Shown here: piece after piece, positions 2,828-44,511 of the stretch
How the letters are laid out: every line of letters starts with the position of its first letter
How positions within the stretch are numbered: position 1 is the stretch's first letter
IMG/VR virus record: IMGVR_UViG_3300009788_000100
DNA length: 64,000 nt
From: a virus
Lineage: Duplodnaviria > Heunggongvirae > Uroviricota > Caudoviricetes
Strand: one strand, 5' to 3'
Notes under the pieces: model-generated
The model's input: only the letters and a program-made list of their open reading frames with translations
What the model was told of the DNA's origin: nothing
Database searches by the model: none
Program-made: the position numbers and the translations under genes

Positions 2828-2830
2828 GTT

Positions 2831-4069: not shown

Positions 4070-4076
4070 TTCGCTC

Positions 4077-5909: not shown

Positions 5910-5910
5910 A

Positions 5911-17068: not shown

Positions 17069-17559
17069 GTCCCTACTCCCGGTTCCGGGTTTCTTGCCGG
17101 CTTGTAGCCACGCGCACGTAGCTCCTTTATAACCTCTTCGATGACAACAGCAGGTACATCATCATCTTCGGGTATGACAAAGGAGTGCTCCCCTTTGAGA
17201 ACTATGTCGGGAGTAGCTACTTCTTTAAGGAAGGCGCGTACGAGGTCGCGCGCTGCTCTACCTATCGTTTCTTCCCGCATTTGTTCTGCTACGCGGGCCA
17301 TATCAGCCGCAGAGGGGATCTCTTCCTCTACAGACATAGGGCCTCGCCCCTTTTTAGAGACGAGGCCCTCCGGTTGCTCCTCAGCGCTGACCCTTTGGGG
17401 TCTATGAACTTTAGTCCCGTCTAGCTGTTCGATTATGCGCTCTCGTTTAAGGATATAGCCGCAAGCATCTTCAGCACAAACGGTTTCTTCAACGTCGCCG
17501 GCGTCGTCGATATCAACGCGGATCTTGATGTCTTCACTTTTACAAAATGGACACTGCAT
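16876..17559 (-). CDS. zinc-ribbon protein with highly charged C-terminal tail
   Basis: 227 aa. N-terminal MQCPFCKSEDIKIRVD...CAEDACGY zinc ribbon, K/R/E-rich tail. Start overlaps the RNAP stop region. Confidence 0.4.
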   Translation of the reverse strand: MQCPFCKSEDIKIRVDIDDAGDVEETVCAEDACGYILKRERIIEQLDGTKVHRPQRVSAEEQPEGLVSKKGRGPMSVEEEIPSAADMARVAEQMREETIGRAARDLVRAFLKEVATPDIVLKGEHSFVIPEDDDVPAVVIEEVIKELRARGYKPARNPEPGVGTWIQIKWPTQVAKKRKKRKADSTPETEELVFKKKNEGDEEIKRKARLAKNHRKKALSARSELPK

Positions 17560-20500
17560 TAGACTCTCTTCTCTTATTAAGTGCCCGGTGCCACAAATAC
17601 GAGGTCAAGTCGACCGACGCTGTGTCCAGGTGCTGCCGCAACCGGACCGGGCTCAGGTTGGAACGAGTTGCAAAGTAGAAACGTCGCTTCTTCTTCACGA
17701 TGACGTTGACGATGCTGGAGCGCCCTCGTTTCAGGTGGGAACTGTAGTGACGCTGCAGGTCATTTACCCCAACACCTTCCGCCTCTTTGCGAATGATTTC
17801 ACACAGTCGTTCTGACCCCTCTGCGGGGAAGCCCATTGCGAGAAGTTCCTTAAGATTTGCCGTGCAAATTGCTGCTTTACAGCGGTCTTCTAGAGAAACG
17901 CCCGCGTGCTTCTTGGCGAAGACGGAGTTTGCCACTTTATCCATGATAACTTCCATGGCCAAGTTTGTTTCGCGGTCGTCAAACCCAACGTTGCCCTCAA
18001 TGATTCGCATAGTGTTGTAAGCCAACGCTACGACGGTGCCGGTGCCCCGCTTGACTCCGGTGAGATTAACAACGATTTCCGCCTGCTCCTCTGCGTTGAG
18101 GGGGTTAAAGCTGCTGAGGCCGATGTCTGTTATGTTGACTGGTTTTGTGCAAGGAACTTTGGTTGCATTAGCCGCCCGTATGTAGCCAATACGGCTAGCG
18201 TCTGGAGCTAAGTACTCCTTTTGAAGGAGCTCTTTTGCTGCTTCTGTGTGGAACGACATCAAGAAGATAACATCCCCATCGAAGTCGAGGCCCTGAGAAA
18301 CCAGGCTATTGCCGCTGACCCGAATGACGAAACGACACGCGGGGTCGTCCGTTACTCGCACTCGCTGCATTCGCAGCGACTGAAACCCGAGGCAAGGGAA
18401 GCGTTCAGCGATGACAATATCGCCGGTTTTTACTGCGAGATTCTCTGCCATCTCGGCATGAATCTCAATCCAGTTCTCCGGGAGGTCGTCTTTAGCTAAG
18501 GTTGCCGTCGCTTTCGCGGAGTGGGGATAGCGCACAGCTAGGGCGTAAGTGGCGATGTCTCCTCGTTTAGTACTTAACTTCTTCGACACGTGATGGAAGT
18601 AGCGGTTAATTGTACGCAGAAGATTATCTTCCGGGGCCCCCTCGTCGACGTAACGGTGGCAGGCTACCACGATGTTGTTGAGGTAGCCTCCTGTATCGGA
18701 GAGCCCCCAAGTTCCTGTTGGGTGCTGCCAACAATCTCGCAACTCCGCACGAGGAATATACAACTTATCGATAAAGGTGTTCACTCCCCCGGGGAGAGAG
18801 GCTTCTTCTAGATTGTTTCCCTCTGAAATCAGGCGATACTCTACATCCTTGTTCTCATCGTCGGGAACGAAGACGTGATAAAGTCGAGGCAACTGCAACA
18901 TGAAGCCTTCGGGGCCGAGAGTGCTATCGACAATGGTATACCGCAATTCTGCGCGGGAGTGGAAATAACTCCCGTTTTGATATAGAGGCTTGATGCAAGA
19001 CCAATCCAAGATGGACTTTTTAAAGCTTTCGCCCTGCAGAGTACCCAGGGTATCGACTAACTCCACGACGTCATCAAACCCTTGTTGGTAGGAGAGAATC
19101 TCATCGGTGATGGGGTTATCTTTTCCGAATATGGTTGTCAAGCCCCGGATCTCGATGTGGCTGAGCTTTACCCCTGCAGTTCGACGACCGCGGTTATCGG
19201 TGGCAGTAACTTCGGCTTTGGTCCACAGCTGATTTTCAGGGTTCTTAATCAGACCCCAGAAGCCCCACCCGCAGAGAGTCCTTCCCGTAAACCAAGGGGT
19301 GCGCACCGGAGAAGTTCCGTCGGCGGCGTACCCCGAAGCTACCAGGGAGGTTTGCAGTTGTGGCAAGCTGACCTTGGCGTCATCTTCAATGACTGTTTCG
19401 CGACCATGTGTTGTCAACGTTAACAGCGCTTCTAAAACCTGCCCGAAGTTACGACGTTTTCCAACCGTTTTTGCAGAGACAATAATATCGATAGGGCGTT
19501 CTTCACCAGTACCTTCGTCTACCATGGTACCACAGTCAGCAAAAGTTACAACTCCCTTGTTGCCGTGACAGTTCGTTAGTTTGACACCTTCTTTAAAGCT
19601 ATGCTTGGTCTCAATGTAGACCCAGGTAGCGTGGCGTTCTTTGCCGTTAAAAGCAACTGTGTCTGTTTCCACGGCGGTTACAAGCGCGTGGTCGGCCCTT
19701 ACCCAGAAGCTGAGTGGCTTGCCATTAGGCTCGACAGAGAGCACGTAACCTTCCTCTATCTGATCGCCAGCTGCAACCTTAACCTCACCAAAACAAAGAA
19801 AGCGCCGGCTTTCTGCCGTCACTTTGTCCAGGTGCCTGTTATCGAGAATCAACTGGTCTTCGAAGTTAGCAGGAACATCAAGGAAGCAGGTCATCAGGTT
19901 CCAGCCCCGGCGGGCAACCCCGGTCTTTTGGGTCAACTCGGCCATGCTGCGACTTTGGATAGTCGGCGTTTCAGTTCCCTTCATCCCCAGCGTTTGGTAG
20001 AGGTTGCGCATCGGGTTGTGGTGGGACAGTCCGAAGGGGGTGAAGCGACGCAGGTCCTGCTTGAGCAGGTTGTTGTTGCACATCCCAGAATCGGAGAGAC
20101 CGATTGAGGTCCAAGGAAAATGCTTCTTGTTGAGCTCTCGCTGGTATTCTAATGCTGCTTGTGGCGGCAGCGCATCGAACTCCGGATCCAGAAAGACAAC
20201 ACGGTTGCACATCGCCCAGGTTTCCATAGGGGTTCCCGTCAGCGGCAGCTTGTTGACCAGGCCGTTGACAATATCCTGAAGGCTGCGGAAAGACATCGGC
20301 GCTTGCTTAGAGTCGAAACTCATAACCAGCCGTTCAAGTTGGGAGCGTTTTCCAACCCCGGCAAAAGCGGTCTCTATTCTGCCGGTGAGTAACCAAGCCA
20401 TAAGGTTCCAGTAGCTGTACTCTTTATCGTCGTGATTCCAAGTACCTACGGCTCTCTTTACACGTCTTCCGATGACGTAGTTTTTGTATTCATCGTCGTA

Positions 20501-20713
20501 AGGCTTCGGGAAACAGAGGCTCTGAGAAAGCTCGCCGCAGAAGAAATGGAGCCAAAGGCTATCTTCGGTCTCGCTCGTACTACAGAGCACCTGCAGAGGG
20601 TTACCCCGTCGGTACTTATTCAAGTTGCAGATGATTGCGCCGAGCTTTAAGTTAACTGCGGCCTTGAAACACTCCATGCTCTCTTCTCCTTTGGGTTCGT
20701 GGACACACACCAC
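17540..20713 (-). CDS. single-polypeptide RNA polymerase with beta-like and beta-prime-like double-psi beta-barrel motifs (YonO / crAss-gp66 / QDE-1-like)
   Basis: 1057 aa. KLTNCHGNKGVVTFAD at about aa 385 matches the RpoB GRHGNKGV lysine motif. SQGLDFDGDVIF at about aa 815 matches the RpoC NADFDGD Mg-binding motif. Both sit in one ORF, in beta-then-beta-prime order. A good SD (AAAGGAGAAG) precedes the ATG. Confidence 0.55.
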   Translation of the reverse strand: MVCVHEPKGEESMECFKAAVNLKLGAIICNLNKYRRGNPLQVLCSTSETEDSLWLHFFCGELSQSLCFPKPYDDEYKNYVIGRRVKRAVGTWNHDDKEYSYWNLMAWLLTGRIETAFAGVGKRSQLERLVMSFDSKQAPMSFRSLQDIVNGLVNKLPLTGTPMETWAMCNRVVFLDPEFDALPPQAALEYQRELNKKHFPWTSIGLSDSGMCNNNLLKQDLRRFTPFGLSHHNPMRNLYQTLGMKGTETPTIQSRSMAELTQKTGVARRGWNLMTCFLDVPANFEDQLILDNRHLDKVTAESRRFLCFGEVKVAAGDQIEEGYVLSVEPNGKPLSFWVRADHALVTAVETDTVAFNGKERHATWVYIETKHSFKEGVKLTNCHGNKGVVTFADCGTMVDEGTGEERPIDIIVSAKTVGKRRNFGQVLEALLTLTTHGRETVIEDDAKVSLPQLQTSLVASGYAADGTSPVRTPWFTGRTLCGWGFWGLIKNPENQLWTKAEVTATDNRGRRTAGVKLSHIEIRGLTTIFGKDNPITDEILSYQQGFDDVVELVDTLGTLQGESFKKSILDWSCIKPLYQNGSYFHSRAELRYTIVDSTLGPEGFMLQLPRLYHVFVPDDENKDVEYRLISEGNNLEEASLPGGVNTFIDKLYIPRAELRDCWQHPTGTWGLSDTGGYLNNIVVACHRYVDEGAPEDNLLRTINRYFHHVSKKLSTKRGDIATYALAVRYPHSAKATATLAKDDLPENWIEIHAEMAENLAVKTGDIVIAERFPCLGFQSLRMQRVRVTDDPACRFVIRVSGNSLVSQGLDFDGDVIFLMSFHTEAAKELLQKEYLAPDASRIGYIRAANATKVPCTKPVNITDIGLSSFNPLNAEEQAEIVVNLTGVKRGTGTVVALAYNTMRIIEGNVGFDDRETNLAMEVIMDKVANSVFAKKHAGVSLEDRCKAAICTANLKELLAMGFPAEGSERLCEIIRKEAEGVGVNDLQRHYSSHLKRGRSSIVNVIVKKKRRFYFATRSNLSPVRLRQHLDTASVDLTSYLWHRALNKRRESNAVSIL

Positions 20714-23820: not shown

Positions 23821-24215
23821 GTGGACCTGCTCGGAATCGAACCGAGGTCCGAACTACTTCAGTGTTGGGTGCTTTACTACGGCTATCTGTACCCAGCTTT
23901 GTGGACTTCATACCCTGTCCACGGTTTTTCTCCTATCTGGGAACCGACTTGAGGGTCTAATGGTTTAACGTCTTCTAGTAGGACGTACAGCGGTCCTGCT
24001 TGGGTAATAAGGTGAGGAGAGCCTACCCCACGCCGACTCTAGGCCGCGGCGAGCGCACGGGGCGCCGCCGTCCGATTGGTGTTAGCCACCATCGAAGCGA
24101 ACTTAACAAACGAGTTGCCAGTTATTGATCGGATAACCAAAGTTAAGGCATTTAGGTTCCAGTATGCCAGCCGAACTTGCCACCGAAAATAGCCCGTCGA
24201 AGCCAGTTCAGGCCC
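23821..24215 (-). ncRNA. ssrA: tmRNA (ssrA-like transfer-messenger RNA)
   Basis: Minus-strand RNA begins GGGCCUGAACUGGCUUCGACGGG (E. coli tmRNA: GGGGCUGAUUCUGGAUUCGACGGG). It ends with T-arm CUCGG-UUCGAUU-CCGAG and CAGGUCC-A, which pairs with the 5' GGGCCUG (one G-U). About 395 nt in a 400-nt ORF-free gap. No canonical ...ALAA tag frame identified by eye. Confidence 0.6.
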
Positions 24216-24223
24216 GTTAGGGA

Positions 24224-24991
24224 CTAGTAGTGTTTTTTCTTTTTTTTCTTCGAGGAAAACTTTCCTGTAGAAGAAGCCCCTCCCTTCTCTTCAGCCGCTT
24301 CTAGTAGCTTTTTAAGATCGCCGCCAATTTTAGCTCCTGTTGCCTTTGGTCGCCGGAACTTTTTACGCAGTAGTTTAGGTGCACTGATGAGCGGCGACGT
24401 TAAGTCCCTGAAGCCGATAATTTTTGTAAAGTAGGAGGTTCTTGAAGGGTTGGAGTTAAAGCCGGAATTACTGTTGCGTAGCTGAGCTCTGTTTTGTAGG
24501 TGCTTTATTGCTTTTTTACTCAGTGCCCTTGGGTTGGGTGGCCGGCGCTTTGCTGCCCACTTCGACCGAGTTCGCATGATGTCCTGGAAAACAGGATCGT
24601 TAAGGAACTGAGTTGAGGTCGCGCCCTTGAGGTAGTTATTCAGGTCAGTGTTGTCTGCTTGGAATTGTGGCATCAACTCCATCCAGCTACAGCTTTGTTG
24701 GTACAGCTCGCTTGAATTAACGCTCAAGGAGAGGTATTCGTGCCAAATAAAAGCCCTCCTGATCTCAGCTTCCCACTTAGTCATATCGTAGGGGAGCACG
24801 CTAAACTCCTCCTTTACTTCAACCCGTGCTGCCGACACCGACAAGTGAAAACCGTAATCATTTCTTTTTGATGTGTTGCCCCACACTAGAAGCAGATAAC
24901 GTTTTGCCTGCTCATCGGCCTTTAGTACCATAAATTTTCCGGTACCGTAACCTTCGATAGTTAACCGAGCCGATAGGTGTTTTCGAAGCAT
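24224..24991 (-). CDS. hypothetical protein with poly-Lys C-terminus
   Basis: 255-aa ORF ending ...SSKKKKKKHY. Confidence 0.35.
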   Translation of the reverse strand: MLRKHLSARLTIEGYGTGKFMVLKADEQAKRYLLLVWGNTSKRNDYGFHLSVSAARVEVKEEFSVLPYDMTKWEAEIRRAFIWHEYLSLSVNSSELYQQSCSWMELMPQFQADNTDLNNYLKGATSTQFLNDPVFQDIMRTRSKWAAKRRPPNPRALSKKAIKHLQNRAQLRNSNSGFNSNPSRTSYFTKIIGFRDLTSPLISAPKLLRKKFRRPKATGAKIGGDLKKLLEAAEEKGGASSTGKFSSKKKKKKHY

Positions 24992-25288
24992 TGCTCGTTA
25001 ATTTCGATTTCGTTAGGGTTAACAACGGTTCCGATTAACTCTCTTGTTTTGGCACTGTGAATAGCAACTGTCATTTCGCTGATAGCTTCTGACCAACATA
25101 AAAGGTAATAGAAACCCATCACTAGGTAGTGGGCTCCTACGGCCTCCTCGTTAATCTTATAGACCTTTGGCCAGTCATTTTTTCCTTCATAAACTAACCC
25201 TGTTGTGGGGCAATGAATGTCTGGCGTTGTTCTACCGTTAATAAGAATTCCACAAAGAGACCGAGCTACTGGAGTTAGGGGTGCTCTC

Positions 25289-25936
25289 CTAGAGCTCATG
25301 CCCACAAACCCCATTAAGAAAATTCCAAATAATTGAGGTACCTGCTTGGCTGGAAGCATCTTTACCTAGATGTTCCGGGTGGAACTGTACTGCGTACAAA
25401 CCACGCTCTTCATCTTCCATAGCAGCGGCCTCTGTAGCTTCAGTAGTACCCGTAACGGAAAACCCCTCAGGAACAGTGGTTACTTTACAGACATGCGCCA
25501 TCCACACAGGAGCTCCCGCATCGGTAAAGTCTCGGAATAGTTCCGAGGGCTCCTCCGTGAAGTCCAGGTGGATTAGTTCTTTCTCCCGTTCGTGCATCCG
25601 TTTGACCTCGCCGCCAAAGTCCTTCGCCATTCGTTGCATGCCGTAGCAAATGCCAAGGACGGGGACACCAAGGGTGTAGATAGTTGTGTCCACCGTGGGC
25701 GCTTTGGGAGAATTGACGTATTCAGGAGAGCCGGAGATGAAAAGTGCCAGAGGGTTTAGTGCCGTTAGAACTTCGGCTGGCGTGTCGCTGGGCAGCAAAA
25801 TGGGGCGCAGCTTGAAGTTAATTAAAGTATCGTATAAGCTCTTGGTAAAAGAGGAACCACAGTAAAGAATAGGAACATTACGCATTGAATTTACTTTCCT
25901 CGCTGCCGTATCCGTGCAAGCTGCCGTGGCTTTCAA
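25289..25936 (-). CDS. class-I glutamine amidotransferase (triad GATase1)
   Basis: 215 aa. VPVLGICYGMQRMA (G-x-C-x-G nucleophile elbow) and VQFHPEHL (His-Glu of the triad). Confidence 0.65.
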   Translation of the reverse strand: MKATAACTDTAARKVNSMRNVPILYCGSSFTKSLYDTLINFKLRPILLPSDTPAEVLTALNPLALFISGSPEYVNSPKAPTVDTTIYTLGVPVLGICYGMQRMAKDFGGEVKRMHEREKELIHLDFTEEPSELFRDFTDAGAPVWMAHVCKVTTVPEGFSVTGTTEATEAAAMEDEERGLYAVQFHPEHLGKDASSQAGTSIIWNFLNGVCGHEL

Positions 25937-26438
25937 GTAATTGCTTTGCTAAGGGCGCATCGTAAATCTTTGCTAGCTGGTCGTGCGCGTATAGGTCCGC
26001 GTATAACTCTAACTCTGCGTGGCTCCAGAAGGGCGACAACTCTTCCTTACGGCAGTCCCAGTCAACGTGACCAACTTCATGGAGAAGAATAAACTCAGTC
26101 TCCATAGTAGTTAAGCCATCGACGACTTCGTTGAGCCAAATACCGCAGGACTTAGTATGCTTCTCCCACTCTTTCGCTTTCGCCGCCTTCATTAGGTAAC
26201 CCCAGTTGAGTCGGTAGGCCTTCGGAATAGCCACCAGCAGTTGCTCCACGGAGTAGTACTTAATCATTCTCTCTAGGAAGTCATCTTGAGTTTGAATAGA
26301 GATGTTGGTAACCATCGGAGGCACATTAGAGTCGGTAACTTTTTTGCCCAGCAAGTTTAGGGGCCAGTAAGTATGCGGCACAACGCGCTCTACCATCGCG
26401 TCGAGAACACTTTGAGTGAGTTTGGTGGAAGTTGTCAC
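25878..26438 (-). CDS. HEVGH zinc-metallopeptidase-like protein, paralog B
   Basis: 186 aa with FILLHEVGHVDWD. Sits between GATase1 and Cys-rich ORFs. Confidence 0.45.
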   Translation of the reverse strand: MTTSTKLTQSVLDAMVERVVPHTYWPLNLLGKKVTDSNVPPMVTNISIQTQDDFLERMIKYYSVEQLLVAIPKAYRLNWGYLMKAAKAKEWEKHTKSCGIWLNEVVDGLTTMETEFILLHEVGHVDWDCRKEELSPFWSHAELELYADLYAHDQLAKIYDAPLAKQLLESHGSLHGYGSEESKFNA

Positions 26439-26851
26439 TGGTTCCTCTCTTTTGGTAGATTTCCGCTGGAGATGAGGTCAAAAATTTCAGCTGCGTCAAC
26501 GTCTAAATTGTACTCTAGTTCCTTGTCGCCCAGCAAGTATTCTCCTAAGTCATAAAAGCCGGAGCAACTTAGTAATGGAATTCCGATCATTTGGCAAGCT
26601 TTATCGTAAGCTGCGGCCGACATCGCGGTCGTTTCGTGGCAACCGCAGTCGTTGACACAGGTTAACTGGAAGCCCCGCTTCTCATCATCGTCCCCATCCT
26701 TAGCAATGAAGGACACAGAGAAAACGCAATCCCAGGGTTCTCCCTGCCAGGCCTCGGCGTTGGGTAAGGAAGACCAAAGAGAACGTAGATTCTTATTCCA
26801 ACGGACAAGGTCACCAATGTTTAGGCAGTCAAAACTATCTATTGCCGACAT
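26435..26851 (-). CDS. hypothetical Cys-containing protein
   Basis: 138-aa ORF. Start overlaps the upstream stop. Confidence 0.3.
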   Translation of the reverse strand: MSAIDSFDCLNIGDLVRWNKNLRSLWSSLPNAEAWQGEPWDCVFSVSFIAKDGDDDEKRGFQLTCVNDCGCHETTAMSAAAYDKACQMIGIPLLSCSGFYDLGEYLLGDKELEYNLDVDAAEIFDLISSGNLPKERNQ

Positions 26852-27399
26852 GCCCGGTACCTTGTTTGAATTTCTACGGCTTGGTTGTAGATCTTCTCAA
26901 CTCCCGCGCCGCCAATTTTATTTGCGTTGGCGCCGCACTTGTAATTATCACAACAATTAAAGGTGCCCGTCCCATAAGCAAACGGTGGATAGATTTTTCC
27001 CGAAGTGCGGCAAGCTACACACAGATAGTGCCCCGCCCAGTCGCGCCAACAGGTATCATTATAGTGGCCGCATCCGTGGCAGTACTCGCTGTAGAGCTTA
27101 ACGATGAGGCTGCCCCTGGCGTCTACTCCCTCGGGAGATAAATCAATTCGGTACAGCTTCAAGTCCCCATGTTTTTTGTGTAAACTCCGATTAGTTGCGT
27201 TGGTGCAGGTTAACGTAAAGTAGTCTTTAGAGGGCATGCCACTTAAGACGTTTCTTTCGGTTACCTCTAAAATACAGTTGGCGCGCTGGATAAACTCCTG
27301 TCGCCTAGGACCCGAATACCTGGGTAAAAACTGCGGGTTCATCTGGTACGTTGCCCGCGGTACCAAAGTCGAGCAGTGCACGGGGTTGAGTATGATCAT
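26839..27399 (-). CDS. hypothetical Cys-rich protein
   Basis: 186 aa with YCHGCGHYNDTCWRDWAGHYLCVACRTSGK and NCCDNYKCGANANK clusters. Confidence 0.3.
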   Translation of the reverse strand: MIILNPVHCSTLVPRATYQMNPQFLPRYSGPRRQEFIQRANCILEVTERNVLSGMPSKDYFTLTCTNATNRSLHKKHGDLKLYRIDLSPEGVDARGSLIVKLYSEYCHGCGHYNDTCWRDWAGHYLCVACRTSGKIYPPFAYGTGTFNCCDNYKCGANANKIGGAGVEKIYNQAVEIQTRYRACRQ

Positions 27400-27684
27400 T
27401 TCAATTTTTCCAGTCCGCTCGCCAACGACTTTCGGTGTTTTTTAGTTTTCGTCTCTACTATTTTAACCTCGTCCACAGCAAGATCAGTCACTTGCATTAC
27501 GAAATGACTATCGTCCGCAATTTCAACTACGGGAGATAAATCCGCTCGGGAGAGCCCGGTTGTTTGGCTGCGGTTCCAGCGGAGGTACTCTTCCCAGGGA
27601 TCCCAGTTACAATGACTGCTTGCCTTTTTTTTTCGCTTGCTCGTTTTCACAGCGGCTTCGACCCTGTCCCGGCGCCGCTGCTTC

Positions 27685-28128
27685 TTACTCTGGCTTACTA
27701 CGCCGTACACCGGGTTTTCTCGACTGTCGCTTTTTGCTTTTGGGTTTCTGACGGCTCTTTTTTTCTTCGACAACTTTCTCTAGCGGTTCTTCTTGCCGTC
27801 CCGAAATCTCTTTTCCCTCGCCATTTTTATTTTCCCTCGTTGCCTTTAACCTCTCTAGGCGACCACGCGTGAAAGCAGCGTTGAAGTAACGCTGGAAAGC
27901 AACGGGGTACTCCTTGCGTCGGCGCTCAATTTTAGCTTCAATGCCCTCTGTTCTTTTAACAACCATCATGTCCCCTACAAAGATGGCCGTGTCTCTTAAA
28001 TCTTTAATAAAAGCGTAGGCTTCTGCCTGCTGCCGAAGTAGCTTTTTCTCACGCTCTGTTAGCTTCATCGGCATCTCGTTCCGTGTAAGGTATGATATAG
28101 TGTTCCACGAGTTGCTGCACATAGTCAA
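27685..28128 (-). CDS. hypothetical basic protein
   Basis: 147-aa ORF, K/R/E-rich tail. Overlaps the 27396..27773 ORF, so one boundary is wrong. Confidence 0.25.
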   Translation of the reverse strand: MTMCSNSWNTISYLTRNEMPMKLTEREKKLLRQQAEAYAFIKDLRDTAIFVGDMMVVKRTEGIEAKIERRRKEYPVAFQRYFNAAFTRGRLERLKATRENKNGEGKEISGRQEEPLEKVVEEKKSRQKPKSKKRQSRKPGVRRSKPE

Positions 28129-28783
28129 CTGCGGGTGCGCTTTCCGGCATCCACTCCGGGTGAAACTGCATACCCAGAGCTTTAATTTTCGGGTACCACA
28201 CTACGTCCGGTTCCGTCTTCAACTGCGCGGAAGCTGCGTCGATATCAATAACAGATTCCGCATCAAACGCGTAGTGCATTGAATAAGGCTTCGGACTCCA
28301 CGCCAGTACCTCAAAGTCACCGGTTGGTAGATCCCAAGGATATTGCATTTGGTGGTGATCCCCCTTCACCATTAATTCCTGAATGTAGCCCTCAGGGAAG
28401 CGTGCTGTTACTGGGTGGGTGCACATCCCATGATTGGTGACATCTTGAAGTAGCTTTCCCCCCGCCATCACACAGAGGAGCTGTGCTCCTCGGCAAATAC
28501 CTACCATCGGTACTCCGTGCGCTTGGGCGGTGTCAAAGACATTCATTTCCTCTACATCACGCGCAAAGTTAGAGAAAGTTGCGGGGTGCTTAGCCCGGTC
28601 ATAAATTTCCGGGGATACGTCGGCTCCCCCGGTAAAAACAACCATCGCGACTTGTTCTGGGGTTCGCTGAAGAATCTCCGGATCATCGGTATACTCGAAC
28701 CCGAAGGTGTGGAAGGGCCGAGAATGATTTCGAGGGGAGTCGTTAACTACTAATAGTTTTTTCAAAAGTGACATTACGGCCAT
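28049..28783 (-). CDS. class-I glutamine amidotransferase-like protein
   Basis: 244 aa. HGVPMVGICRGAQLLCVMAGG (G-x-C-x-G) and LGMQFHPEWM (H-P-E). Confidence 0.6.
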   Translation of the reverse strand: MAVMSLLKKLLVVNDSPRNHSRPFHTFGFEYTDDPEILQRTPEQVAMVVFTGGADVSPEIYDRAKHPATFSNFARDVEEMNVFDTAQAHGVPMVGICRGAQLLCVMAGGKLLQDVTNHGMCTHPVTARFPEGYIQELMVKGDHHQMQYPWDLPTGDFEVLAWSPKPYSMHYAFDAESVIDIDAASAQLKTEPDVVWYPKIKALGMQFHPEWMPESAPAVDYVQQLVEHYIIPYTERDADEANRA

Positions 28784-29657
28784 TTCTTTTTAGCTGTTCG
28801 ACAAGCTCCGCTGCACGTTTAAAGCTCCCGGAGGCAATAACCGGGTAGACCTCGCTCGAGAGCATCATTTCGGGGTTGGAAACGATAAAGCGTCGCGGGG
28901 GGACTGTTGTACCTGTCTGCCAACCCCACATGAGTGATCTTTCGTTGATGCACGCCGTTTTGAGGTGGCGGTCATCGATTTCTTCAGGACAGTGGGTTAA
29001 GCGATGCATTTGCAGCACTATCCCTAGGTCGCAACCAGCATTAGCTGGGTGGGAACCAAGCCCTGGAATGCTAGTGGAGAAAGGATAGAGCGACTGGTCA
29101 AGGTAACCAACGTGGTCTCGGTGACAATAGGCGATTGCCGCCCAGGGGTCGCAACCCGCTTCGTCGATTAGTTGGGTGCCGTGAAGAACAATACCAATCC
29201 CTTCTCTAATCCAACGTAACCAGCACAACTGCATATAAATACGAGGGATAATCGCCTCGGCGGCATCTAGGTCAATGCGAATTCCCTCTCCGGTTACCAA
29301 GCTTTTGGCAGTTTGCTTTAGGGGAAGTAGGCCGATAGCTTGCCCTATTTCCGCCCAGCGAATACAATGGGCGAGCGGGACCGGTACGCTGCCATCCTCT
29401 TCCACCGCCTGGTGCGGGCAGTATGTTAAGTATCTTGTGGCAGGGCGGTTTTTAAGGTAGTTACCTAGGTCTCCAAAGCAAGCACGGTTTTGAGTCTCCA
29501 GCAATACTTTATCATCCGCATCGCGAAGGTAGTACTTCACGGCATACTTAGGAGTTTTGTAGCGTTTTGACTGTACCGCAGCGAGAAGCCGACGTATTGT
29601 TCTATCCGGAAATAAACGCCGCATCAATTCCGCATTTAGAAGCGCACTTGTAACCAC
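28743..29657 (-). CDS. hypothetical protein (candidate Cys/His enzyme)
   Basis: 304-aa ORF with AGCDPWAAIAYCHRDHVGY. No family assigned. Confidence 0.35.
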   Translation of the reverse strand: MVTSALLNAELMRRLFPDRTIRRLLAAVQSKRYKTPKYAVKYYLRDADDKVLLETQNRACFGDLGNYLKNRPATRYLTYCPHQAVEEDGSVPVPLAHCIRWAEIGQAIGLLPLKQTAKSLVTGEGIRIDLDAAEAIIPRIYMQLCWLRWIREGIGIVLHGTQLIDEAGCDPWAAIAYCHRDHVGYLDQSLYPFSTSIPGLGSHPANAGCDLGIVLQMHRLTHCPEEIDDRHLKTACINERSLMWGWQTGTTVPPRRFIVSNPEMMLSSEVYPVIASGSFKRAAELVEQLKRNGRNVTFEKTISS

Positions 29658-30148
29658 AACTTCCTCTTACATTTCTTAAAGCCGTTGTTAATGAAACACT
29701 GAACTTTTTTATCGTAGTTATTCTTTAGGACACGAAAGCCCCAGTTATAGTGCCCCCACCAGGGGTGTGGTCGGTGGCAGTTTTTAATCCCCCTCCACTT
29801 GCCGTACTTTTTGTAACCACATTTTCCTGTACTACTATACAGTTTAACGCAGAACTTAGTATGTTGTTTCTCCCAGTAGAGCAATTCTCTCGCGGCTTCC
29901 CTTACAGAGGCCTTATCGCTGGGCATTTTGGGGCGGGTATCTGAAGTCGTGGTGCGGTGGTTTTGACAAAAACCAATGTCCCAACTTTTGTTCTTATTGC
30001 GGTGCCACTTTTTACTGCCGTTGCCGCTTTCGTAGCGGCAAATACCCTCTAGCACAGCAGCATCGACCCCGTACTTCTTTGCGGTCGCCTGGAAGTAAGT
30101 ACCGCTAAGTGCGGCTAGTGCTATAATGGCGCTAAAAAGGTATGGCAA
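29636..30148 (-). CDS. secreted lytic transglycosylase (SLT/lysozyme-like) domain protein
   Basis: 170 aa. N-terminal signal peptide (MPYLFSAIIALAALSG), GVDAAVLEGICRYESGN with catalytic-type E-S, then IGFCQ (compare GLMQ). Confidence 0.5.
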   Translation of the reverse strand: MPYLFSAIIALAALSGTYFQATAKKYGVDAAVLEGICRYESGNGSKKWHRNKNKSWDIGFCQNHRTTTSDTRPKMPSDKASVREAARELLYWEKQHTKFCVKLYSSTGKCGYKKYGKWRGIKNCHRPHPWWGHYNWGFRVLKNNYDKKVQCFINNGFKKCKRKLWLQVRF

Positions 30149-30343
30149 ATCTACTCCTTGCTTAGGTTGTCACTGCCCAGCTCCGCCAGTTCTCCAATTG
30201 CTTTTACGGAGAGCCAAAAAGGAGGTAAATCCGACCCGGGCTCGTGGACACGATAAAAGCGACCATATTCGTTATATAAGCCGCTGTATTCGACAGTGGT
30301 GTTGTTGTCCCGTAAAATCTGAACCGCATCGCCAAAGAGCACC

Positions 30344-31267
30344 TTAAAATTCCCAAGCTTGAGAAAGCTCGGCGGCAGGCATCGTATCCACTTGCTCTAT
30401 TCTATTGTGAAGCTCTTCATCCAACAACGGGTGGAGGTGTTCTTCGTAGAGTTTTCGAGCCGTCGCGATGTCAGACTCGTTGATGACCCGCTGCAGCTCT
30501 TCCGCGCCACCGAGATCCTCGATGAGCTCGACGAAAAGCTCTTCGTCAAGAGCAACTGCAAGCGCTTTGGCACTCAAGTCATAGATGAGGTGGGTGTGTT
30601 CTGGCGTAGCCAGCCACCACGAGCTGCAGGCCCGGTATTCAACCCCGTATGTTTTGGGGCGGTGCGCGCCCGCCTTTCCATAGAGGCCGCGCCGCGCCGC
30701 CGCCGTCACATCCTTGTCTAAGAAGACACTCATAAGACCAACAAAGATATCAAGAGCCTTAACGACCCTCACTTTGCCCAAACCACTTTCGTCAAGCAAC
30801 AGCTCCGCTAACTCTTTGTCTTCTTTGTGCGCGCCGATATGAAGGTGCCCGCCGGCGGACCGGAAGGGCTTGTGCGCCGCGTCAGCGGGAACGTGGTTGA
30901 TCGCTAGTGCGTAAGCATCGAAGTCGGGGTCACAGCCGAAGGCGCTCGCTTCGTAACCTTGGAGCTGGCTGTTCGGAAAGTTAGCCGAAGCTTGTAACAG
31001 CAGTTCGGTGTTCTTTGCTGCCGCTAAAGAAGAAATTTCCTTTAGCGCTGTTCCTATAATAGCGGTAAACTTTTCAGGAGTATCCGCCGGAATGGTGTTA
31101 AACTCGATGAGTACGTTGTCATGCAAAACAGCACCACCAGTGGCCAACGGCCGGGGCGCCATCTTACCTTCCGCAATCACGGGGATTGCGGAGCGTAACT
31201 CCTTAGTCTCAGGGTCCCTTAAGAAAAGTTCGGGGTCTGAGCCTAACAAAAAGCGAACCGTCTCCAT
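30344..31267 (-). CDS. carboxylate-amine ligase (YbdK/GCS2-like 'amidoligase'), paralog 3
   Basis: 307 aa. LLGSDPELFLRDPE at the N-terminus and SAGGHLHIGAHKED. Same motif pair as 2831 and 9418. Confidence 0.55.
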   Translation of the reverse strand: METVRFLLGSDPELFLRDPETKELRSAIPVIAEGKMAPRPLATGGAVLHDNVLIEFNTIPADTPEKFTAIIGTALKEISSLAAAKNTELLLQASANFPNSQLQGYEASAFGCDPDFDAYALAINHVPADAAHKPFRSAGGHLHIGAHKEDKELAELLLDESGLGKVRVVKALDIFVGLMSVFLDKDVTAAARRGLYGKAGAHRPKTYGVEYRACSSWWLATPEHTHLIYDLSAKALAVALDEELFVELIEDLGGAEELQRVINESDIATARKLYEEHLHPLLDEELHNRIEQVDTMPAAELSQAWEF

Positions 31268-31291
31268 GGAAATTTCTCCTTATCCCTCTTG

Positions 31292-32140
31292 CTACCAGTT
31301 CTTCTTGACCGCAGCAGCAACCCTACCTTCGGAAAGAGAAACTATTCCGGAGTGATCGTGCAGGCCGTAGATTCCCGCATCTGCAGGGTAGTTATCCTCG
31401 AATTTTGAAGCGAATATTTCTGTAATCGGTTTTCCGATCACCTTATCCAGCCCCGCTTTAGCGCGAGTAGTGTACTTAGCATCATTGCTGCCGATATAAC
31501 TCTTGGCGTTCTCAAAGTGTTCCCGCCACGAGCCTTCCTCGTAGGTCATACCGACGCGGACGGCGAGGGTGTAAAGAGAAATCAGTGTAGGTGAGTACAT
31601 CCACCTAACATCACCGACAAGAACGTAAACTTCGTCGGTACCGTCCTTGTATTTGCCGCCATATTCCAGGCGGCTGGGATCAAATCCCTGATCCGCTTCG
31701 ATAGCCCGCATGAAATTTAGCGACTTCAAGCACTTAGACTTAAAGTCTTGGTCCCCTTTAAGGCGAACTGCGACGCGGGTAGCCTTAAAATCAACCACCG
31801 GATTAGTTCCGGGAACATAGTAGAAGCCATAGATGCCGGCGTTTTGATTGTTGATGGTTGCCCAGACAGCATCCTGCAGATAGTCTTTACAGAAAGCAAA
31901 CGGATGGCACTGTTTACCCTCGGGAGAGACCCAGGAAAATTCCAAACCAGTGCTGTATATCTGGTTCATCCCTTTATCGTCGAACCAGCTCGTCATAACG
32001 GCGGTGGTAAGGTCTAACGGTGTCGATTCGTTCGCGGCTATCTTAACTGCCCCCACGAAACTCTTGCCGGTGGCTACCGCGTTGGCTCGACGAGTGATCC
32101 AGCCCTGCTTAGCAGCTCTGCTTCGTTTTGAGTTGACCAT
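31292..32140 (-). CDS. hypothetical protein
   Basis: 282-aa ORF, no motif recognised. Confidence 0.35.
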   Translation of the reverse strand: MVNSKRSRAAKQGWITRRANAVATGKSFVGAVKIAANESTPLDLTTAVMTSWFDDKGMNQIYSTGLEFSWVSPEGKQCHPFAFCKDYLQDAVWATINNQNAGIYGFYYVPGTNPVVDFKATRVAVRLKGDQDFKSKCLKSLNFMRAIEADQGFDPSRLEYGGKYKDGTDEVYVLVGDVRWMYSPTLISLYTLAVRVGMTYEEGSWREHFENAKSYIGSNDAKYTTRAKAGLDKVIGKPITEIFASKFEDNYPADAGIYGLHDHSGIVSLSEGRVAAAVKKNW

Positions 32141-33307
32141 CTAGCTTATTTTTTCCTATGTAAATTTCTTTAAAGACAGCCCCCGGTAATGACATTTATC
32201 ACACCGGTAGAGGCCCGTTAATCCGCGCACTGTAGTTCCCCCCTTACCATTACCGATTAATTCGTAACGGTACCGCCTCCAAATTATACCAACACCACAC
32301 CTTTGGCAATACTGTTTCGTAGCTCGCTCGAAATAAAACCTGGAATCAGTTGGGATGCGGTGATCAAACCAGGCTAGTAAGGTGTTCTCCGCTTGCAGTT
32401 CTCTATACTTGAAGATGTAAAAGCCGACAACAACTACACCAAGCACTATTACCCAGATCATTCGTCCAACTCCAAACCTATTTCGGAGATAACAAAGAGC
32501 TCAGTTTCAACCACGTTGACAGTAGTACGCACGATGTCTGAAATATCAGCTGTTTTTTGACGCCGGTTCCAGTCGTCCCAGTCTTCTATCGCCCTACGTC
32601 GCCGATCTCTTACACGGGCAAAGGGGGGTATTATTTTGTTAACAACACTCCGACTGTGTGGACCTGCCCAACCGCGAGCTGACCCCGGGGGGTTAGCCAT
32701 CATCCGTCGTGGTCGAGCAAACGTCAGAAAACAGTTAGCGCAGTGGTAGTCTGTATAGCTCCCGGCATCGGAGAAGCGAGAAGGGCCTTGTTGTTCTTGG
32801 GCGGTTAATAAATGACAGTAAGGACAATTAATAATCATCCTTACCCCCATTCTTTTTATCTGCAGGTACAAGACACCTATCTAACTCAAAAGACATAGTG
32901 GATGTTCTTATTGCCCGGCGCCCATAGCTGTTTTTGTTGTTCCCCCAAGGCATCCAACGAACTTTTGTGTTTGGCCAAGTACTACTAACCATACAGTAAG
33001 TTCCTTTTGGAATGCCGCCCCTATCGCACCTTAGAAAGAACATTCTTCCGAGAACAAAACGCTTCAAGCTATACTTCGCTAAGGCTTCGTGCACCCCATC
33101 CAAGTATTGTTTAGAAAACTTACGCCTTTTTTCTCTGGAAGCAGACCAGTAGTCCTCATCTGGCCGCTTGTCCATCTATAACAGACCCTCAAATAAGCTA
33201 ATGTTGCTAAACAACATTACTGGGGTAAGCAATAGCTGAATGGGGAGCAACAGCGGCATCAGTAGGAGCGCGAGCATGGCGGTAAAGAAGCGGAATATAG
33301 TGCCCAT

Positions 33308-34514: not shown

Positions 34515-34988
34515 CTACTCGCTCAGTGTCGCAGCAATGCCAGCGACCTTCTCTAAAATATCGGGGTTTTTGTCGAAGAGCTCAGCGAAGTTGATGCCGG
34601 CAAGAGCTGCCGCCGCAGCGGCGTCGCCGCTCTGGAGCGCCTTCTGCATTTTCTGCTGATTGGAATCACGACCGAAACTGATGTTGTGAATCAGTACCTC
34701 GGTAAAGTTCTTCCAGGCGTCGCCCTCCTTCGCCGGTCTGATGTTGTTGACGCGAAGTTCGCCGATAATAGCGACCTCTTTGCCCTTTCCGGTGAAATTT
34801 GCCATGTTAGTGGCAGTATTTCCCCAGGCGACGACCTGCACGGCGTCGTAGCGGCGCTTACCGTCTTTCGAGGGCCTTCGGTTAATGATGACGCGACCAA
34901 CAGCGCGAGCTGAGCGGCCATTTTCTTCGGGGGTGTACATTACCCCATCCGCAAGTCGGCCGACGAGCTGTACTTGATTCATATCCAT
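34515..34988 (-). CDS. single-stranded DNA-binding protein (OB-fold SSB), paralog 2
   Basis: 157 aa. VQLVGRLADGVMYTPEENGRSARAVGRVIINRR...YDAVQVVAWGNTATNMANF..GKEVAIIGELRVNN is a classic SSB OB-fold pattern. Ala-rich linker; no acidic DDDIPF-type tail. Confidence 0.65.
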   Translation of the reverse strand: MDMNQVQLVGRLADGVMYTPEENGRSARAVGRVIINRRPSKDGKRRYDAVQVVAWGNTATNMANFTGKGKEVAIIGELRVNNIRPAKEGDAWKNFTEVLIHNISFGRDSNQQKMQKALQSGDAAAAAALAGINFAELFDKNPDILEKVAGIAATLSE

Positions 34989-37907: not shown

Positions 37908-38759
37908 TTAATTACTGATTAGAATCCCCGGCGATGTGCCCCCGGTGATGATAACTTTATCACCTGGCGCAACTTTGCTGTAAAGCAACGCGGCGGCCTC
38001 GATGCGCCGCACTGAGAGGTAGGCTGGCGTCAGAGATTTGGCGAGGATGACGTTGTAGGCAGCCTCAGCTTGAGCTTCTGCAGCTCGCACGATCCTCATC
38101 TTCTCGGCGATCTTCATGCGGTTGTCGGCGCGCAAAACCTCCATCTGTTGTTTCGCGACCTCTTCTTGTAGCTCAATCTCCCGCTTCCGCTTCTTCTCCA
38201 TCGCATTGGTAATGACTTCGGGATAGTCGAGGTTGGAGGTAACAACCATCGTAATCTCGACCGGGGTACCCTTAAGGGCAGCTCGCAAGTCCTTGGCGAT
38301 TACTTCCTGAATTTCTGCTCGCCGCTCGCGAATATCTGTCGTCGAGTACTGCGAAACGTAAAAGCGAGTGATGGAGCGAGCCTGGGGACGAACGTAATTG
38401 TTGTAGAGGACGTCGAAATCTAACACCCCCTTCTTCATTTTCGAACCCTGGTTGTTGAGTACGGCGCGCATCCCCTCCCCATCAGTGACGGCCAAACGAG
38501 CACGGACTTTGAGGTCGAACTTCATGTTGAGCTCGTCCTTGCAGAGCACGCTCATCTTCTCTTTGTAGGTCGTTTCTGAGGTCTCGATGAGCAGCATCTC
38601 GCAGCGACCGTAGCAAGTGTGACGACCGGGCTGCAGGGCTTCAGCTTGGATGCCGCTGGGTTCCTGCCGCACGCCGATGAATCCGGGTGGGACAACTTCG
38701 TTACACCCAAGGGTGTAAAGACTGCAGAAAGCAATAAGGGCGATGATGAGTTTGTTCAC
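37908..38759 (-). CDS. SPFH/band-7 (prohibitin/HflC-like) domain lipoprotein
   Basis: 283 aa. MNKLIIALIAFCSLYTLGC lipoprotein signal, band-7 core, and C-terminal coiled-coil (REIELQEEVAKQQMEVLRADNRMKIAEKMRIVRAAEAQAEAAYN) typical of the SPFH family. Confidence 0.6.
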   Translation of the reverse strand: MNKLIIALIAFCSLYTLGCNEVVPPGFIGVRQEPSGIQAEALQPGRHTCYGRCEMLLIETSETTYKEKMSVLCKDELNMKFDLKVRARLAVTDGEGMRAVLNNQGSKMKKGVLDFDVLYNNYVRPQARSITRFYVSQYSTTDIRERRAEIQEVIAKDLRAALKGTPVEITMVVTSNLDYPEVITNAMEKKRKREIELQEEVAKQQMEVLRADNRMKIAEKMRIVRAAEAQAEAAYNVILAKSLTPAYLSVRRIEAAALLYSKVAPGDKVIITGGTSPGILISN

Positions 38760-41827: not shown

Positions 41828-42385
41828 GCTTGGCTCGGTATTGCCATTACTAAAGGGTTCACCGAGTTTGACATCTTCTACTCCCGGGGTTTCCCCCGGG
41901 GCACTCAAATTTTACTTAAGTCCGTCGTGGCTACCATTACACCACCGCTGCATAGTCCCAGTCAATTGACTCTGCCAATTGGTCTACCGGGGGTTTATTT
42001 ATCTTTTTGTGCACGCAGCCAAAGCACTTGGTGTTTAGGTTGACCTACACCTACACATTTTACTTTAGTGGAAGCTATATGAGGTTCAAGAGCATTCCCC
42101 TTCGAGAATCCAACTTTTCGTCCACACCAAGGACACTTTATCTTCTTTTTATTCGCGGGCACAAGTTACTATAAAGAATAGGGATTGCATGCTTTGCAAG
42201 GGCAATAGAGATGAAGAAACTTGGGCCAGTCTTTACGAGGAATGCCTTCTTCCTTCAACCTTTGGTAGTAAGCTTGGATAGCGCAGTTCTTTTTAGGGTT
42301 TTCGTCTGCCCAGTGTTCCTTTTTATGTACCCACTGCTTTACTTTATTCTTTTCATCCTTTGGCATGTTTTTCTCTCTTGTTGGA

Positions 42386-43901: not shown

Positions 43902-44120
43902 TTACCGTTTTCGGAAGGTAATCAGCCCGCGAGAAGAGTCATAGGGAGAAACGGCCACAGTCACCTCATCCCCCAGCACGACTCGAATACGGTTCTTTCG
44001 CATTCGACCAGAGAGTTTAGCGATAACCACGATGTCATCTTCGCAGCTAACGCGGAAGTTTCCACCTCCCCCGCAGCTAACTATCGTCCCCTCCATTTCG
44101 ATATGATCTTCTTTACCCAT
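43902..44120 (-). CDS. infA: translation initiation factor IF-1
   Basis: From internal Met: MGKEDHIEMEGTIVS...FRV....VVIAKLSGRMRKNRIRVVLGDEVTVAVSPYDSSRGLITFRKR. E. coli IF1 is [66 protein letters not shown]. 72 aa. Confidence 0.8.
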   Translation of the reverse strand: MGKEDHIEMEGTIVSCGGGGNFRVSCEDDIVVIAKLSGRMRKNRIRVVLGDEVTVAVSPYDSSRGLITFRKR

Positions 44121-44511
44121 AACGCTGTGCTTTCCTTTCGCTGCAATGCTGCCGCCAGCTACCCGATTCAACAACAGCGTCATCACGGTAACTGCCGTTG
44201 TAGATGTAAATAAGGATGTCTTCAGTACCGTCTTCTAGGGTGATAAATTCTCGGCGGTACAACCCCTGCGTCGGGTCGGCCTTGTAGACGCCCTCTAAGC
44301 CGTTCAGACGGTCTTCTTGTTCCGTGTCCACCTCGTACACCTCTCCCTGGAGAGGGGTCTCACCGTCCAGGAAGACGCCAGGAAAGGCGCCTAAAGAAAC
44401 CATGGTGAACTCCGGTTTCGTGGTCGCTTCGCCAACGAAAACTGCATCTTCTAGTAAACAGTGGTTGCCAAAGCCCTTTAATAGGCTACCATAAACAAAA
44501 ACTTTGGTCAT
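44113..44511 (-). CDS. gamma-glutamyl cyclotransferase / AIG2-like protein
   Basis: 132 aa starting MTKVFVYGSLLKG (the YGSL motif of the GGCT/AIG2 fold) with a downstream conserved E (LQGEVYEV). Confidence 0.6.
   Translation of the reverse strand: MTKVFVYGSLLKGFGNHCLLEDAVFVGEATTKPEFTMVSLGAFPGVFLDGETPLQGEVYEVDTEQEDRLNGLEGVYKADPTQGLYRREFITLEDGTEDILIYIYNGSYRDDAVVESGSWRQHCSERKAQRYG

Follow-up and report, generated by a model that had tools for sequence, protein, structure and literature searches.

We analysed a 64,000-nt stretch of DNA (the window; positions count from its first letter) from the IMG/VR record IMGVR_UViG_3300009788_000100, following up an initial annotation of its genes between 25289 and 31267. 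This region forms the core of a compact block of genes, all read in one direction, in a large uncultured phage, and is probably the second half of a split and expanded amidoligase cassette of the phiEco32/LUZ24/PA11/crAss type, for which a mechanism is proposed below. Gene content indicates that the two amidoligase loci of the window are one known, uncharacterised system, split and expanded; the present copy is joined to three previously undescribed protein families.

The initial annotation had suggested a multi-step amide-forming pathway. This idea is not new: the phiEco32-type amidoligase system was predicted in 2009 and is the namesake of a Pfam family. Iyer, Abhiman, Burroughs and Aravind reportedly made that prediction from comparative genomics. 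The role predicted by Iyer et al. 2009, as cited in two papers (PMC10580990, PMC11318856), is a modification of the cell wall that blocks superinfection. All open reading frames (ORFs) and motifs listed in the initial annotation were recovered, on the minus strand and with conserved catalytic residues. It had missed a conserved 282-aa partner protein encoded just outside its range and a transfer-messenger RNA (tmRNA) gene that ends the block.

The ligase at 30344 and its paralogs

Judged by sequence similarity, the ORF at 30344-31267 is a direct ortholog of the phiEco32-type COOH-NH2 ligase (PF14395), a predicted ATP-dependent carboxylate-amine ligase. Its product matched PF14395 (Phage phiEco32-like COOH.NH2 ligase-type 2) at 1e-10, with 41.8 bits against a cutoff of 25, and phrog_3815 at 7e-60. 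Two paralogs in the first locus scored 74 and 87.8 bits against PF14395, the sole Pfam family in all three proteins. The three amidoligase paralogs of the initial annotation indeed align pairwise beyond their short motifs, at 24-32% identity and with BLASTP E values of 2e-9, 1e-8 and 6e-25. Across 15 homologs of the 30344 ligase the motifs G-x-D-P-E, G-G-H-x-H-I-G and E-Y-R are invariant, the invariant residues being G9, D11, E13, H141, H143, E210, Y211 and R212. No PDB relative was detectable by sequence for this ligase, which is 29-56% identical to the ligases of phages UFV-P2, QDWS535, cr108_1, TC6 and Klyazma and of the related contigs described below.

The first locus, which also encodes class-II glutamine amidotransferases (GATases), is composed as follows:

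1838-2827 (-): RimK-like ATP-grasp protein (Pfam, NCBIfam)
2831-4069 (-): ligase, PF14395
4077-5909 (-): class-II GATase, 610 aa, MCGIVG N-terminal nucleophile
Between the two class-II GATase genes (-): 306-aa ORF
6828-7724 (-): class-II GATase, MCGIVG N-terminal nucleophile
Between the second class-II GATase and the 9418 ligase (-): 560-aa ORF
9418-10515 (-): ligase, PF14395

The class-II GATases of this locus gave weak NCBIfam matches to the EgtC amidohydrolase. Both of its ligases carry an N-terminal extension of ~90-110 residues with a shared G-(V/L)-I-R-L...L...P-G-A-x-L-x-L pattern. The extensions gave only insignificant matches, to MazE/AbrB and CDC48_N, and may be a substrate- or nucleic-acid-binding beta-barrel.

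Orthologs of the ligase and C26 genes are contiguous in other phages

A tblastn search with the 30344 ligase matched 313 GenBank phage records, including LUZ24/PaP3-like Pseudomonas phages and Escherichia, Vibrio, Aeromonas and Proteus phages. A contiguous cassette of ligase, Peptidase_C26-type enzyme (C26), class-II GATase, ATP-grasp and often gamma-glutamyl cyclotransferase (GGCT) was found in LUZ24-like, PA11-like, crAss-like and Alcaligenes phages. The loci examined were arranged as follows:

UFV-P2: COOH-NH2 ligase, 186-aa hypothetical, Amidoligase_2, class-II GATase, ATP-grasp, GGCT
Alcaligenes phage QDWS535: GGCT ... C26 "peptidase", hypothetical, ligase, hypothetical, amidoligase, class-II GATase, ATP-grasp
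crAss-like phage cr108_1: ATP-grasp, two hypotheticals, C26, ligase, class-II GATase
TC6 and Klyazma (Zobellviridae): C26, class-II GATase, ligase, amidoligase, ATP-grasp

The 30344 ligase and the C26 enzyme at 28049 are orthologs of these cassette genes (BLASTP, 29-38% identity, E 1e-26 to 1e-50), and the ligases of the first locus are more distant paralogs. Ten IMG/VR loci found through the ligase had the same neighbours, namely C26, gamma-glutamyl(amine) cyclotransferase (GGACT) and class-II GATase genes. COOH-NH2 ligase, class-II GATase, ATP-grasp and GGCT all co-occur in the window, where the set is not contiguous but spread over 1838-10515, 24224-32461 and 44113-44511. Since the orthologs of the 30344 ligase and C26 adjoin class-II GATase, ATP-grasp and GGCT genes elsewhere, the two loci of the window are likely to be functionally linked. 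The suggestion that these are not unrelated housekeeping genes is thus upheld by the contiguity of their orthologs in the cassettes of several phage families. The unannotated ORFs of the window showed no homology, by BLASTP or hidden Markov model (HMM) searches, to the unannotated cassette neighbours of UFV-P2, QDWS535, cr108_1, TC6 and Klyazma.

The GGCT-like gene noted at 44113 proved to encode a GGACT with a PF06094 match at 6e-21, and is followed by a gene for an IF1-like protein:

44113..44511 (-): GGACT / AIG2-like gamma-glutamyl(amine) cyclotransferase, PF06094
43902-44186 (-): IF1-like gene directly after the GGACT gene, PF01176 at 1.6e-18

Homologs of the GGACT gene adjoin the ligase or the cassette in UFV-P2, QDWS535 and the IMG/VR loci L011, L014-L016, L019, L020 and L043, and the pair of GGACT and IF1-like genes is conserved in the contigs L021 and L023.

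The second locus is a closely packed block

All substantial ORFs within 24000-33000 lie on the minus strand. Fifteen genes fill the interval from 32461 down to 24224, neighbours overlapping by 4-32 nt or separated by gaps of at most 29 nt, and sigma-70-like promoter and terminator-like sites within the block were not commoner than in shuffled sequence. Given this close packing and the lack of excess promoter- or terminator-like sites, the block looks like one transcription unit. Its members, in the order of transcription, are:

32156..32461 (-): transmembrane/zinc-ribbon protein, 101 aa, carrying a transmembrane helix at its N-terminus and a CxxC...CxxC zinc-ribbon-like motif; same position in L021, L022 and L023
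31292..32140 (-): fam282 protein, 282 aa, undescribed family, neighbour of the ligase
30344..31267 (-): COOH-NH2 ligase type 2 (third amidoligase), PF14395, phrog_3815
30151..30342 (-): small ORF, 63 aa, its position directly after the ligase conserved
29636..30148 (-): EtgA/IagB-like (SLT, GH23) lytic transglycosylase candidate, 170 aa, hydrophobic N-terminus, accessory insert
28743..29657 (-): 304-aa protein, rare undescribed family, overlapping and preceding the C26 gene
28049..28774 in the feature table, ORF 28049-28783 (-): Peptidase_C26-type enzyme of class-I GATase fold, PF07722
27685..28068 (-): small conserved protein, 127 aa, without family match; homologs at the same position in L021-L023 (37-52% identity)
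27396..27710 (-): basic protein, 104 aa, without family match; weak homologs in L021 and L022
26839..27399 (-): Cys-rich protein, 186 aa, variable member without family match; sole homolog in L021 (30% identity)
26435..26851 (-): conserved protein, 138 aa, without family match; homologs in L021-L023
25878..26438 (-): HEVGH zincin with a Lit (Peptidase_U49)-like active-site region, overlapping the GATase gene
25289..25885, ORF to 25936 (-): stand-alone GuaA-type class-I GATase, 198 aa, TIGR00888 and PF00117
24961..25314 (-): conserved protein, 117 aa, without family match, overlapping the GATase gene and directly downstream of it; homologs in L021-L023; also a gene in the public contigs
24224..24931 (-): final protein-coding gene of the block, 235 aa, lysine-rich tail, without family match; weak homolog in L021
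23819..24215 (-): tmRNA gene, 3' boundary of the block (ARAGORN; Rfam RF00023)

The tmRNA gene is full-length and occupies a 420-nt gap below 24224. It was found by ARAGORN and matched RF00023 with 65.3 bits against a gathering score of 47 (E 7.5e-25); its predicted tag ends in ...PRALAAA. L022 and L023 each have a predicted tmRNA at the equivalent, syntenic site, and tmRNAs have reportedly been found in huge phages.

No GenBank phage matched the locus by megablast. Two public contigs carry the identical locus (ENA ERZ27251120 k141_1086698, 68,087 bp; Logan SRR5210996, 43,955 bp), and the gene calls of both map one-to-one onto the window. Joined together, they set the genome size at about 91 kb at least.

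Three gene pairs are conserved in a syntenic clade

The 282-aa protein had 24 homologs at 43-61% identity, on contigs including L021 (85 kb), L022 (315 kb) and L023 (81 kb). These three share a gene order that runs from SSB, metallophosphoesterase and the transmembrane/zinc-ribbon protein through the 282-aa protein, ligase, an ORF of ~75 aa, a protein of ~300 aa and C26, and then through small ORFs, zincin, GuaA-type GATase, an ORF of ~110 aa and one more ORF. The block proteins are 25-73% identical in L021, L022 and L023, and the block is partly kept in L011 (IMGVR_UViG_3300022719_000329, a 296 kb jumbo-phage contig). Past the block, both the window and L022 encode a 320-aa protein and then a two-barrel RNA polymerase-like protein (1,060 aa in L022); the L021 and L023 loci end before this region. 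Within this clade three pairs are conserved: the 282-aa protein with the ligase, the 304-aa protein with C26, and the Lit-like zincin with the GuaA-type GATase.

The first pair extends well beyond the clade. A profile search with the 282-aa family (fam282) of 1.84 billion representatives retrieved 1,491 family clusters at E<=1e-3. Among 19 distant IMG/VR loci (25-35% identity), 15 have the fam282 gene immediately upstream of a PF14395-type ligase gene, and in the remaining four it adjoins ATP-grasp, class-II GATase or GGACT genes. GenBank phages yielded one weak match and a pattern scan of GTDB genomes none; neither Pfam nor PHROG contained a match to the 282-aa protein. The family is possibly a degenerate partner of the glutamine synthetase (GS)/GCL/PafA-like fold, which we regard as a lead and not as a result: Foldseek was negative for a GS-like fold, hhalign against the PF14395 and Amidoligase_2 alignments gave a probability of <1%, and the family has no invariant Glu and is missing the usual catalytic, metal- or ATP-binding Glu, His and Arg residues.

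In L021-L023, and in L011 as judged by an HMM match (E 2e-5), every homolog of the 304-aa gene immediately precedes C26 and shares an overlap with it. The protein had been described as a Cys/His protein; that description did not hold, as a single Cys is invariant across the family. A GS-like fold was not detected for it either (hhalign probability <1%, Foldseek negative). Of the loci compared here, the most compact core of the second locus is at 8094-13231 of L011, in the order GGACT, fam282, ligase, 304-aa family, C26 and a second fam282 paralog.

The small ORF between the ligase and the following genes has equivalents of 74-77 aa at the same place in L021-L023, which share an N-terminal F-x-D-A...L-R...G-x-x-Y pattern. 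A Pup-like tag was considered for this ORF and rejected: the window ORF ends in Glu and its homologs in Pro, Asn and Met.

The enzyme at 28049 resembles gamma-glutamyl hydrolases

The initial annotation had counted four GATases of two classes. Both MCGIVG class-II enzymes and the GuaA-type class-I enzyme stand, and the Cys-His-Glu triad is invariant in three clade homologs of the 25289 GATase and in the nine homologs of the 28049 protein. The latter, however, is closer to Peptidase_C26 hydrolases: it matched PF07722 at 7e-20 (72 bits against a cutoff of 20.5) and GATase more weakly, at 5e-9. Its GICRGAQ (containing the Cys), HHQM and FHPE motifs are invariant in those nine homologs. The closest solved relatives are Lin1909, P. 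aeruginosa SpuA and E. coli PuuD, and weak NCBIfam matches were obtained to PuuD and to gamma-glutamyl-CDP-amidate hydrolase. This enzyme is more likely to be a gamma-glutamyl amide hydrolase than an ammonia-channelling amidotransferase.

A stand-alone GuaA-type GATase

The GATase at 25289 matched PF00117 at 4e-33 (115 bits), TIGR00888 (guaA_Nterm) at 5e-44 with 150 bits, just under the equivalog cutoff of 172, and the GATase domain of T. thermophilus GMP synthase (PDB 2ywb) at 5e-28. It contains GICYGMQ and FHPE. Public gene calls place the likely start at 25885, giving 198 aa. No other gene of the block is as well conserved in the clade (53-73% identity). All of its GenBank phage matches are GuaA-like and none lies in a cassette-bearing phage; its IMG/VR relatives are mostly full-length GuaA outside any cassette. 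The SGGxDS motif of a PP-loop synthetase, the partner of a GuaA-type GATase, was absent from every ORF of the window.

These features raise the alternative that the genes are independent auxiliary metabolic genes and not one pathway. The GATase would boost guanine-nucleotide supply together with host GuaA, C26 would hydrolyse folyl-polyglutamate or gamma-glutamyl compounds, the SLT-like protein would be a lysis or entry enzyme, and the ligase would act alone. The proximity of the GATase to genuine GMP synthase N-domains, the mostly full-length GuaA proteins among its viral relatives, its conservation (as would be expected of a metabolic enzyme) and the variability of the SLT-like gene are all consistent with this. 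However, a GATase domain alone cannot make GMP, and the window has no PP-loop synthetase to complement it; C26 and the ligase are neighbours in at least 5 different phage groups, and the block is gap-free and syntenic. We consider independent auxiliary genes improbable.

DNA modification provides a further setting for GATases, as fusions are known in 7-deazaguanine DNA modification (Gat-QueC). A system that hypermodifies phage DNA, for example by attaching amino-acid-derived groups to bases or amidating them, would fit the Gat-QueC precedent, the radical SAM gene in the window and the replication genes that surround the block, namely two SSBs, a helicase and a weak UDG-like ORF. Against this, neither QueC nor any other PP-loop motif occurs in a window ORF, and FolE, QueD, DpdA/TGT, a base hydroxymethylase and a 5-HMUDK-type kinase were all missing from the ~70 ORFs scanned. 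The radical SAM protein gave only a weak QueE-like PHROG match (6e-6) and has no companion gene of the deazaguanine pathway. Furthermore, the well-studied phages LUZ24, PaP3 and phiEco32 carry amidoligase cassettes, and to our knowledge none of them has hypermodified DNA. Hypermodification is accordingly very improbable, and a Gat-QueC-type pathway for the GuaA-type GATase was rejected within the window, where there is neither a PP-loop motif nor another Que gene.

The zincin and the lower half of the block

The HEVGH peptidase of the initial annotation is a conserved HExxH...E zincin whose active-site region resembles that of Lit. Its signature L-L-H-E-x-G-H-V-D, with E144, Y146 and D153, is invariant in the clade. 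Residues 103-154 around HExxH align with the Lit family (NCBIfam PRK09672, 3.7e-5, 23 bits against a cutoff of 274); a full-length family match to Lit / Peptidase_U49 was not obtained. A match to the phrog_87 metallo-protease was found at 8e-4, and a precomputed match to PF10463 is marked weak. No GenBank phage matched the zincin by tblastn. The zincin gene overlaps the GuaA-type GATase gene, and the pair is specific to the clade.

The Lit zincin of E. coli cleaves EF-Tu. The likeness to its active-site region raises the possibility that the lower half of the block (zincin, GuaA-type GATase, 117-aa and 235-aa proteins and tmRNA) is a separate module for translation takeover or protection that adjoins the ligase/C26 module by chance. 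L022 and L023 keep the zincin, GATase and tmRNA genes together, genes for an IF1-like protein, peptide deformylase, a Thg1-like protein and tRNA-Gln are present elsewhere in the window, and the zincin-GATase pair is absent from classical cassettes. Conversely, the similarity to Lit spans just ~50 residues around HExxH and falls far below the cutoff, it is not obvious what a GATase would do in translation takeover, and the genes overlap the upstream block without a break. A separate module is unlikely, though it retains some weight.

Variable members of the block

The gene described in the initial annotation as a secreted SLT-like enzyme has the catalytic ES and DIGxxQ motifs and a hydrophobic N-terminus; its family scores are sub-threshold (PF01464, 12.8 bits against 21.3; Glucosaminidase, 18 against 30.2). 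An alignment to EtgA (PDB 8urn; E 0.028) places these motifs together, RYESGNG and DIGFCQ pairing with NESKNK and DIGIMQ of EtgA, and both are kept in the sole homolog, in L023 (52% identity). With L021 and L022 lacking it, the gene is present in 2/4 clade members. The 186-aa protein likewise has its Cys cluster kept in a single homolog (L021). By this distribution, the SLT-like gene is an accessory insert and the 186-aa Cys-rich gene a variable one. The second locus as originally drawn stands for the ligase and C26, with the GuaA-type GATase and HEVGH zincin as a clade-specific pair and the SLT-like and 186-aa genes as variable inserts.

Proposed mechanism

We propose that the ligase, with its 282-aa partner, would use ATP to join a carboxylate to an acceptor amine. 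The carboxylate donor is most likely to be the gamma-carboxyl of glutamate, as in GCS2/GS-type enzymes, given the GCS2/GS ancestry of the ligase, the presence of a RimK-like ATP-grasp and the two enzymes that act on gamma-glutamyl bonds. The ligase paralogs and RimK-like ATP-grasp of the first locus would add or extend further residues, and the class-II GATases could supply ammonia for carboxylate amidation or trim glutamyl groups in an EgtC-like manner. The 304-aa protein would act on the conjugate, after which the C26 hydrolase and GGACT would strip the gamma-glutamyl groups.

In the PuuA/PuuD and BtrJ/BtrG pathways a substrate is ligated, modified and deprotected. The gene order of ligase, 304-aa protein and C26 would fit this logic (PuuA/PuuD; butirosin BtrJ/BtrG), and GGACT would provide a second route of group removal, as BtrG does in butirosin synthesis. 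The zincin and GuaA-type GATase would be a clade-specific add-on. The amide-forming pathway first suggested for the region is therefore only partly retained: linked multi-step chemistry is sensible, but C26 and GGACT are amide-cleaving by family, and the class-II GATases have weak EgtC matches.

Several observations weigh against assigning the region to a split cassette. Its halves are ~15 kb apart, with RNA polymerase-like, HD-domain, tmRNA and other unrelated genes between them. The PF12224 Amidoligase_2, which classical cassettes carry, is absent from the window; a BLASTP comparison (E<=0.05) of its ORFs of 60 aa or more with the PF12224 genes of UFV-P2, QDWS535, TC6 and Klyazma returned no match. 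The GuaA-type GATase and zincin have no counterpart in classical cassettes and may have an unrelated role. Finally, a literature search found no experimental test of any cassette member.

The candidate acceptors can be ranked. A peptidoglycan stem-peptide precursor or other envelope peptide is possible, and so, to the same tentative degree, is a host or phage protein; a small amine or peptide metabolite is slightly more doubtful, and DNA is at best a distant candidate. A cell-wall target gains a little from the inserted SLT-like gene. The RimK-like ligase, the Lit-like protease, the Dop/PafA fold matches and the translation-related neighbours lend slight weight to a protein target.

A more speculative reading, which we think rather unlikely, is that the 282-aa and 304-aa proteins have a degenerate glutamine-synthetase/PafA-type fold and form obligate hetero-complexes with the ligase and C26, respectively, as writer and eraser of reversible gamma-glutamyl (isopeptide) marks. 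If so, such marks would be placed on host or phage proteins or on cell-wall peptides, in a viral analogue of pupylation and depupylation built from different parts. The system would be widespread in large uncultured phages, with more than 1,400 family clusters, and its links in this clade would be to the Lit-like protease, the stand-alone GATase and the tmRNA of the phage.

Under the favoured reading of a split, expanded cassette, the window is a form of one of the more widespread phage gene sets annotated without a function. Its hosts include therapeutic Pseudomonas phages, phiEco32-like coliphages, a crAss-like gut phage and marine phages, and large uncultured phages carry the expanded form. 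The three couplings and the large unannotated 282-aa family offer concrete protein pairs for biochemistry. Knowing the product would settle the 2009 prediction and could bring to light a novel mode of host takeover or of superinfection exclusion.

Other genes in the window

A 1,057-aa protein encoded at 17540-20713 (-) has Rpb2_6-like and Rpb1_2-like regions and resembles a fused two-barrel RNA polymerase. A tblastn search gave no GenBank phage match for it, but the 315-kb contig L022 has a conserved counterpart of 1,060 aa. Besides the IF1-like gene, translation-related genes comprise peptide deformylase at 45515-46090 (-), Thg1-like tRNA-His guanylyltransferase at 59320-60084 (-) and tRNA-Gln(UUG) at 42382-42455 (-). 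An M50 peptidase and an HD-domain protein are also encoded.

Two SSB-family genes lie at 12397-12831 (-) and 34515-34988 (-), and a second small zinc-ribbon-like protein is encoded at the head of the block (32458-32871, -), beside the 32156-32461 protein. Upstream of the block, at 37908-38759 (-), is a Band_7/SPFH protein gene; in UFV-P2 a Band_7 gene lies a few genes upstream of the cassette, and the association may be recurrent.

The radical SAM enzyme at 57449-58405 (-) matched PF04055 at 3e-17. The ORF after it, 56731-57519 (-), gave a weak match to a broadened fam282 profile (E 9e-5 in a small local database). As a second fam282 paralog it is unconfirmed, with an hhalign probability of 5%. 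Lastly, the product of 47289-47801 (-) gave a weak Asp/Asn beta-hydroxylase-like (cupin dioxygenase) match at 3e-4, narrowly missing the family cutoff; a genuine match would make it another peptide-modifying enzyme in the same genome.

Comparison with known systems

The closest known systems include Pup-PafA-Dop protein tagging (PDB 4bjr, 9cku). Like Lit (Peptidase_U49, the e14 prophage exclusion protease), the zincin has the HExxH active-site region; unlike Lit, it is 186 aa long and not about 300 aa, and it is encoded by a phage in an operon with a GATase.

MurT-GatD and AsnB1/LtsA amidate peptidoglycan carboxylates. As in these systems, the phage set would pair an ATP-dependent ligase with a glutamine amidotransferase for the amidation of a peptide carboxylate, a likeness that fits the published cell-wall prediction and the SLT-like insert. 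However, neither a Mur-ligase nor an asparagine-synthetase domain was detected in the phage set, and the phage enzymes have no export signals except for the SLT-like protein.

The PuuA/PuuD pathway and SpuA (PDB 6vtv, 7d4r) likewise combine a GS-superfamily ATP-dependent ligase with a C26 Cys-His-Glu gamma-glutamyl hydrolase, and, as in PuuA/PuuD, the gene between the phage ligase and hydrolase could act on a glutamylated intermediate. By contrast, the phage ligase is of the GCS2/COOH-NH2 type and not GlnA-like as is PuuA, and the phage set has no recognisable oxidase or dehydrogenase and adds class-II GATases, an ATP-grasp and GGACT.

In relation to the classical cassette, the window differs in being split into two blocks ~15 kb apart, in having three PF14395 paralogs, no PF12224 and two class-II GATases, and in ending its block with a tmRNA gene. 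Relative to the five loci examined, it adds the 282-aa and 304-aa families, the Lit-like zincin and the stand-alone GuaA-type GATase. Nevertheless, the COOH-NH2 ligase and C26 enzyme are orthologous to those of the phiEco32/LUZ24/PA11/crAss-type cassette, and the class-II GATase with N-terminal Cys, the ATP-grasp, the GGCT/AIG2 protein and the early or replication-region location are all shared with the phiEco32/LUZ24 type.

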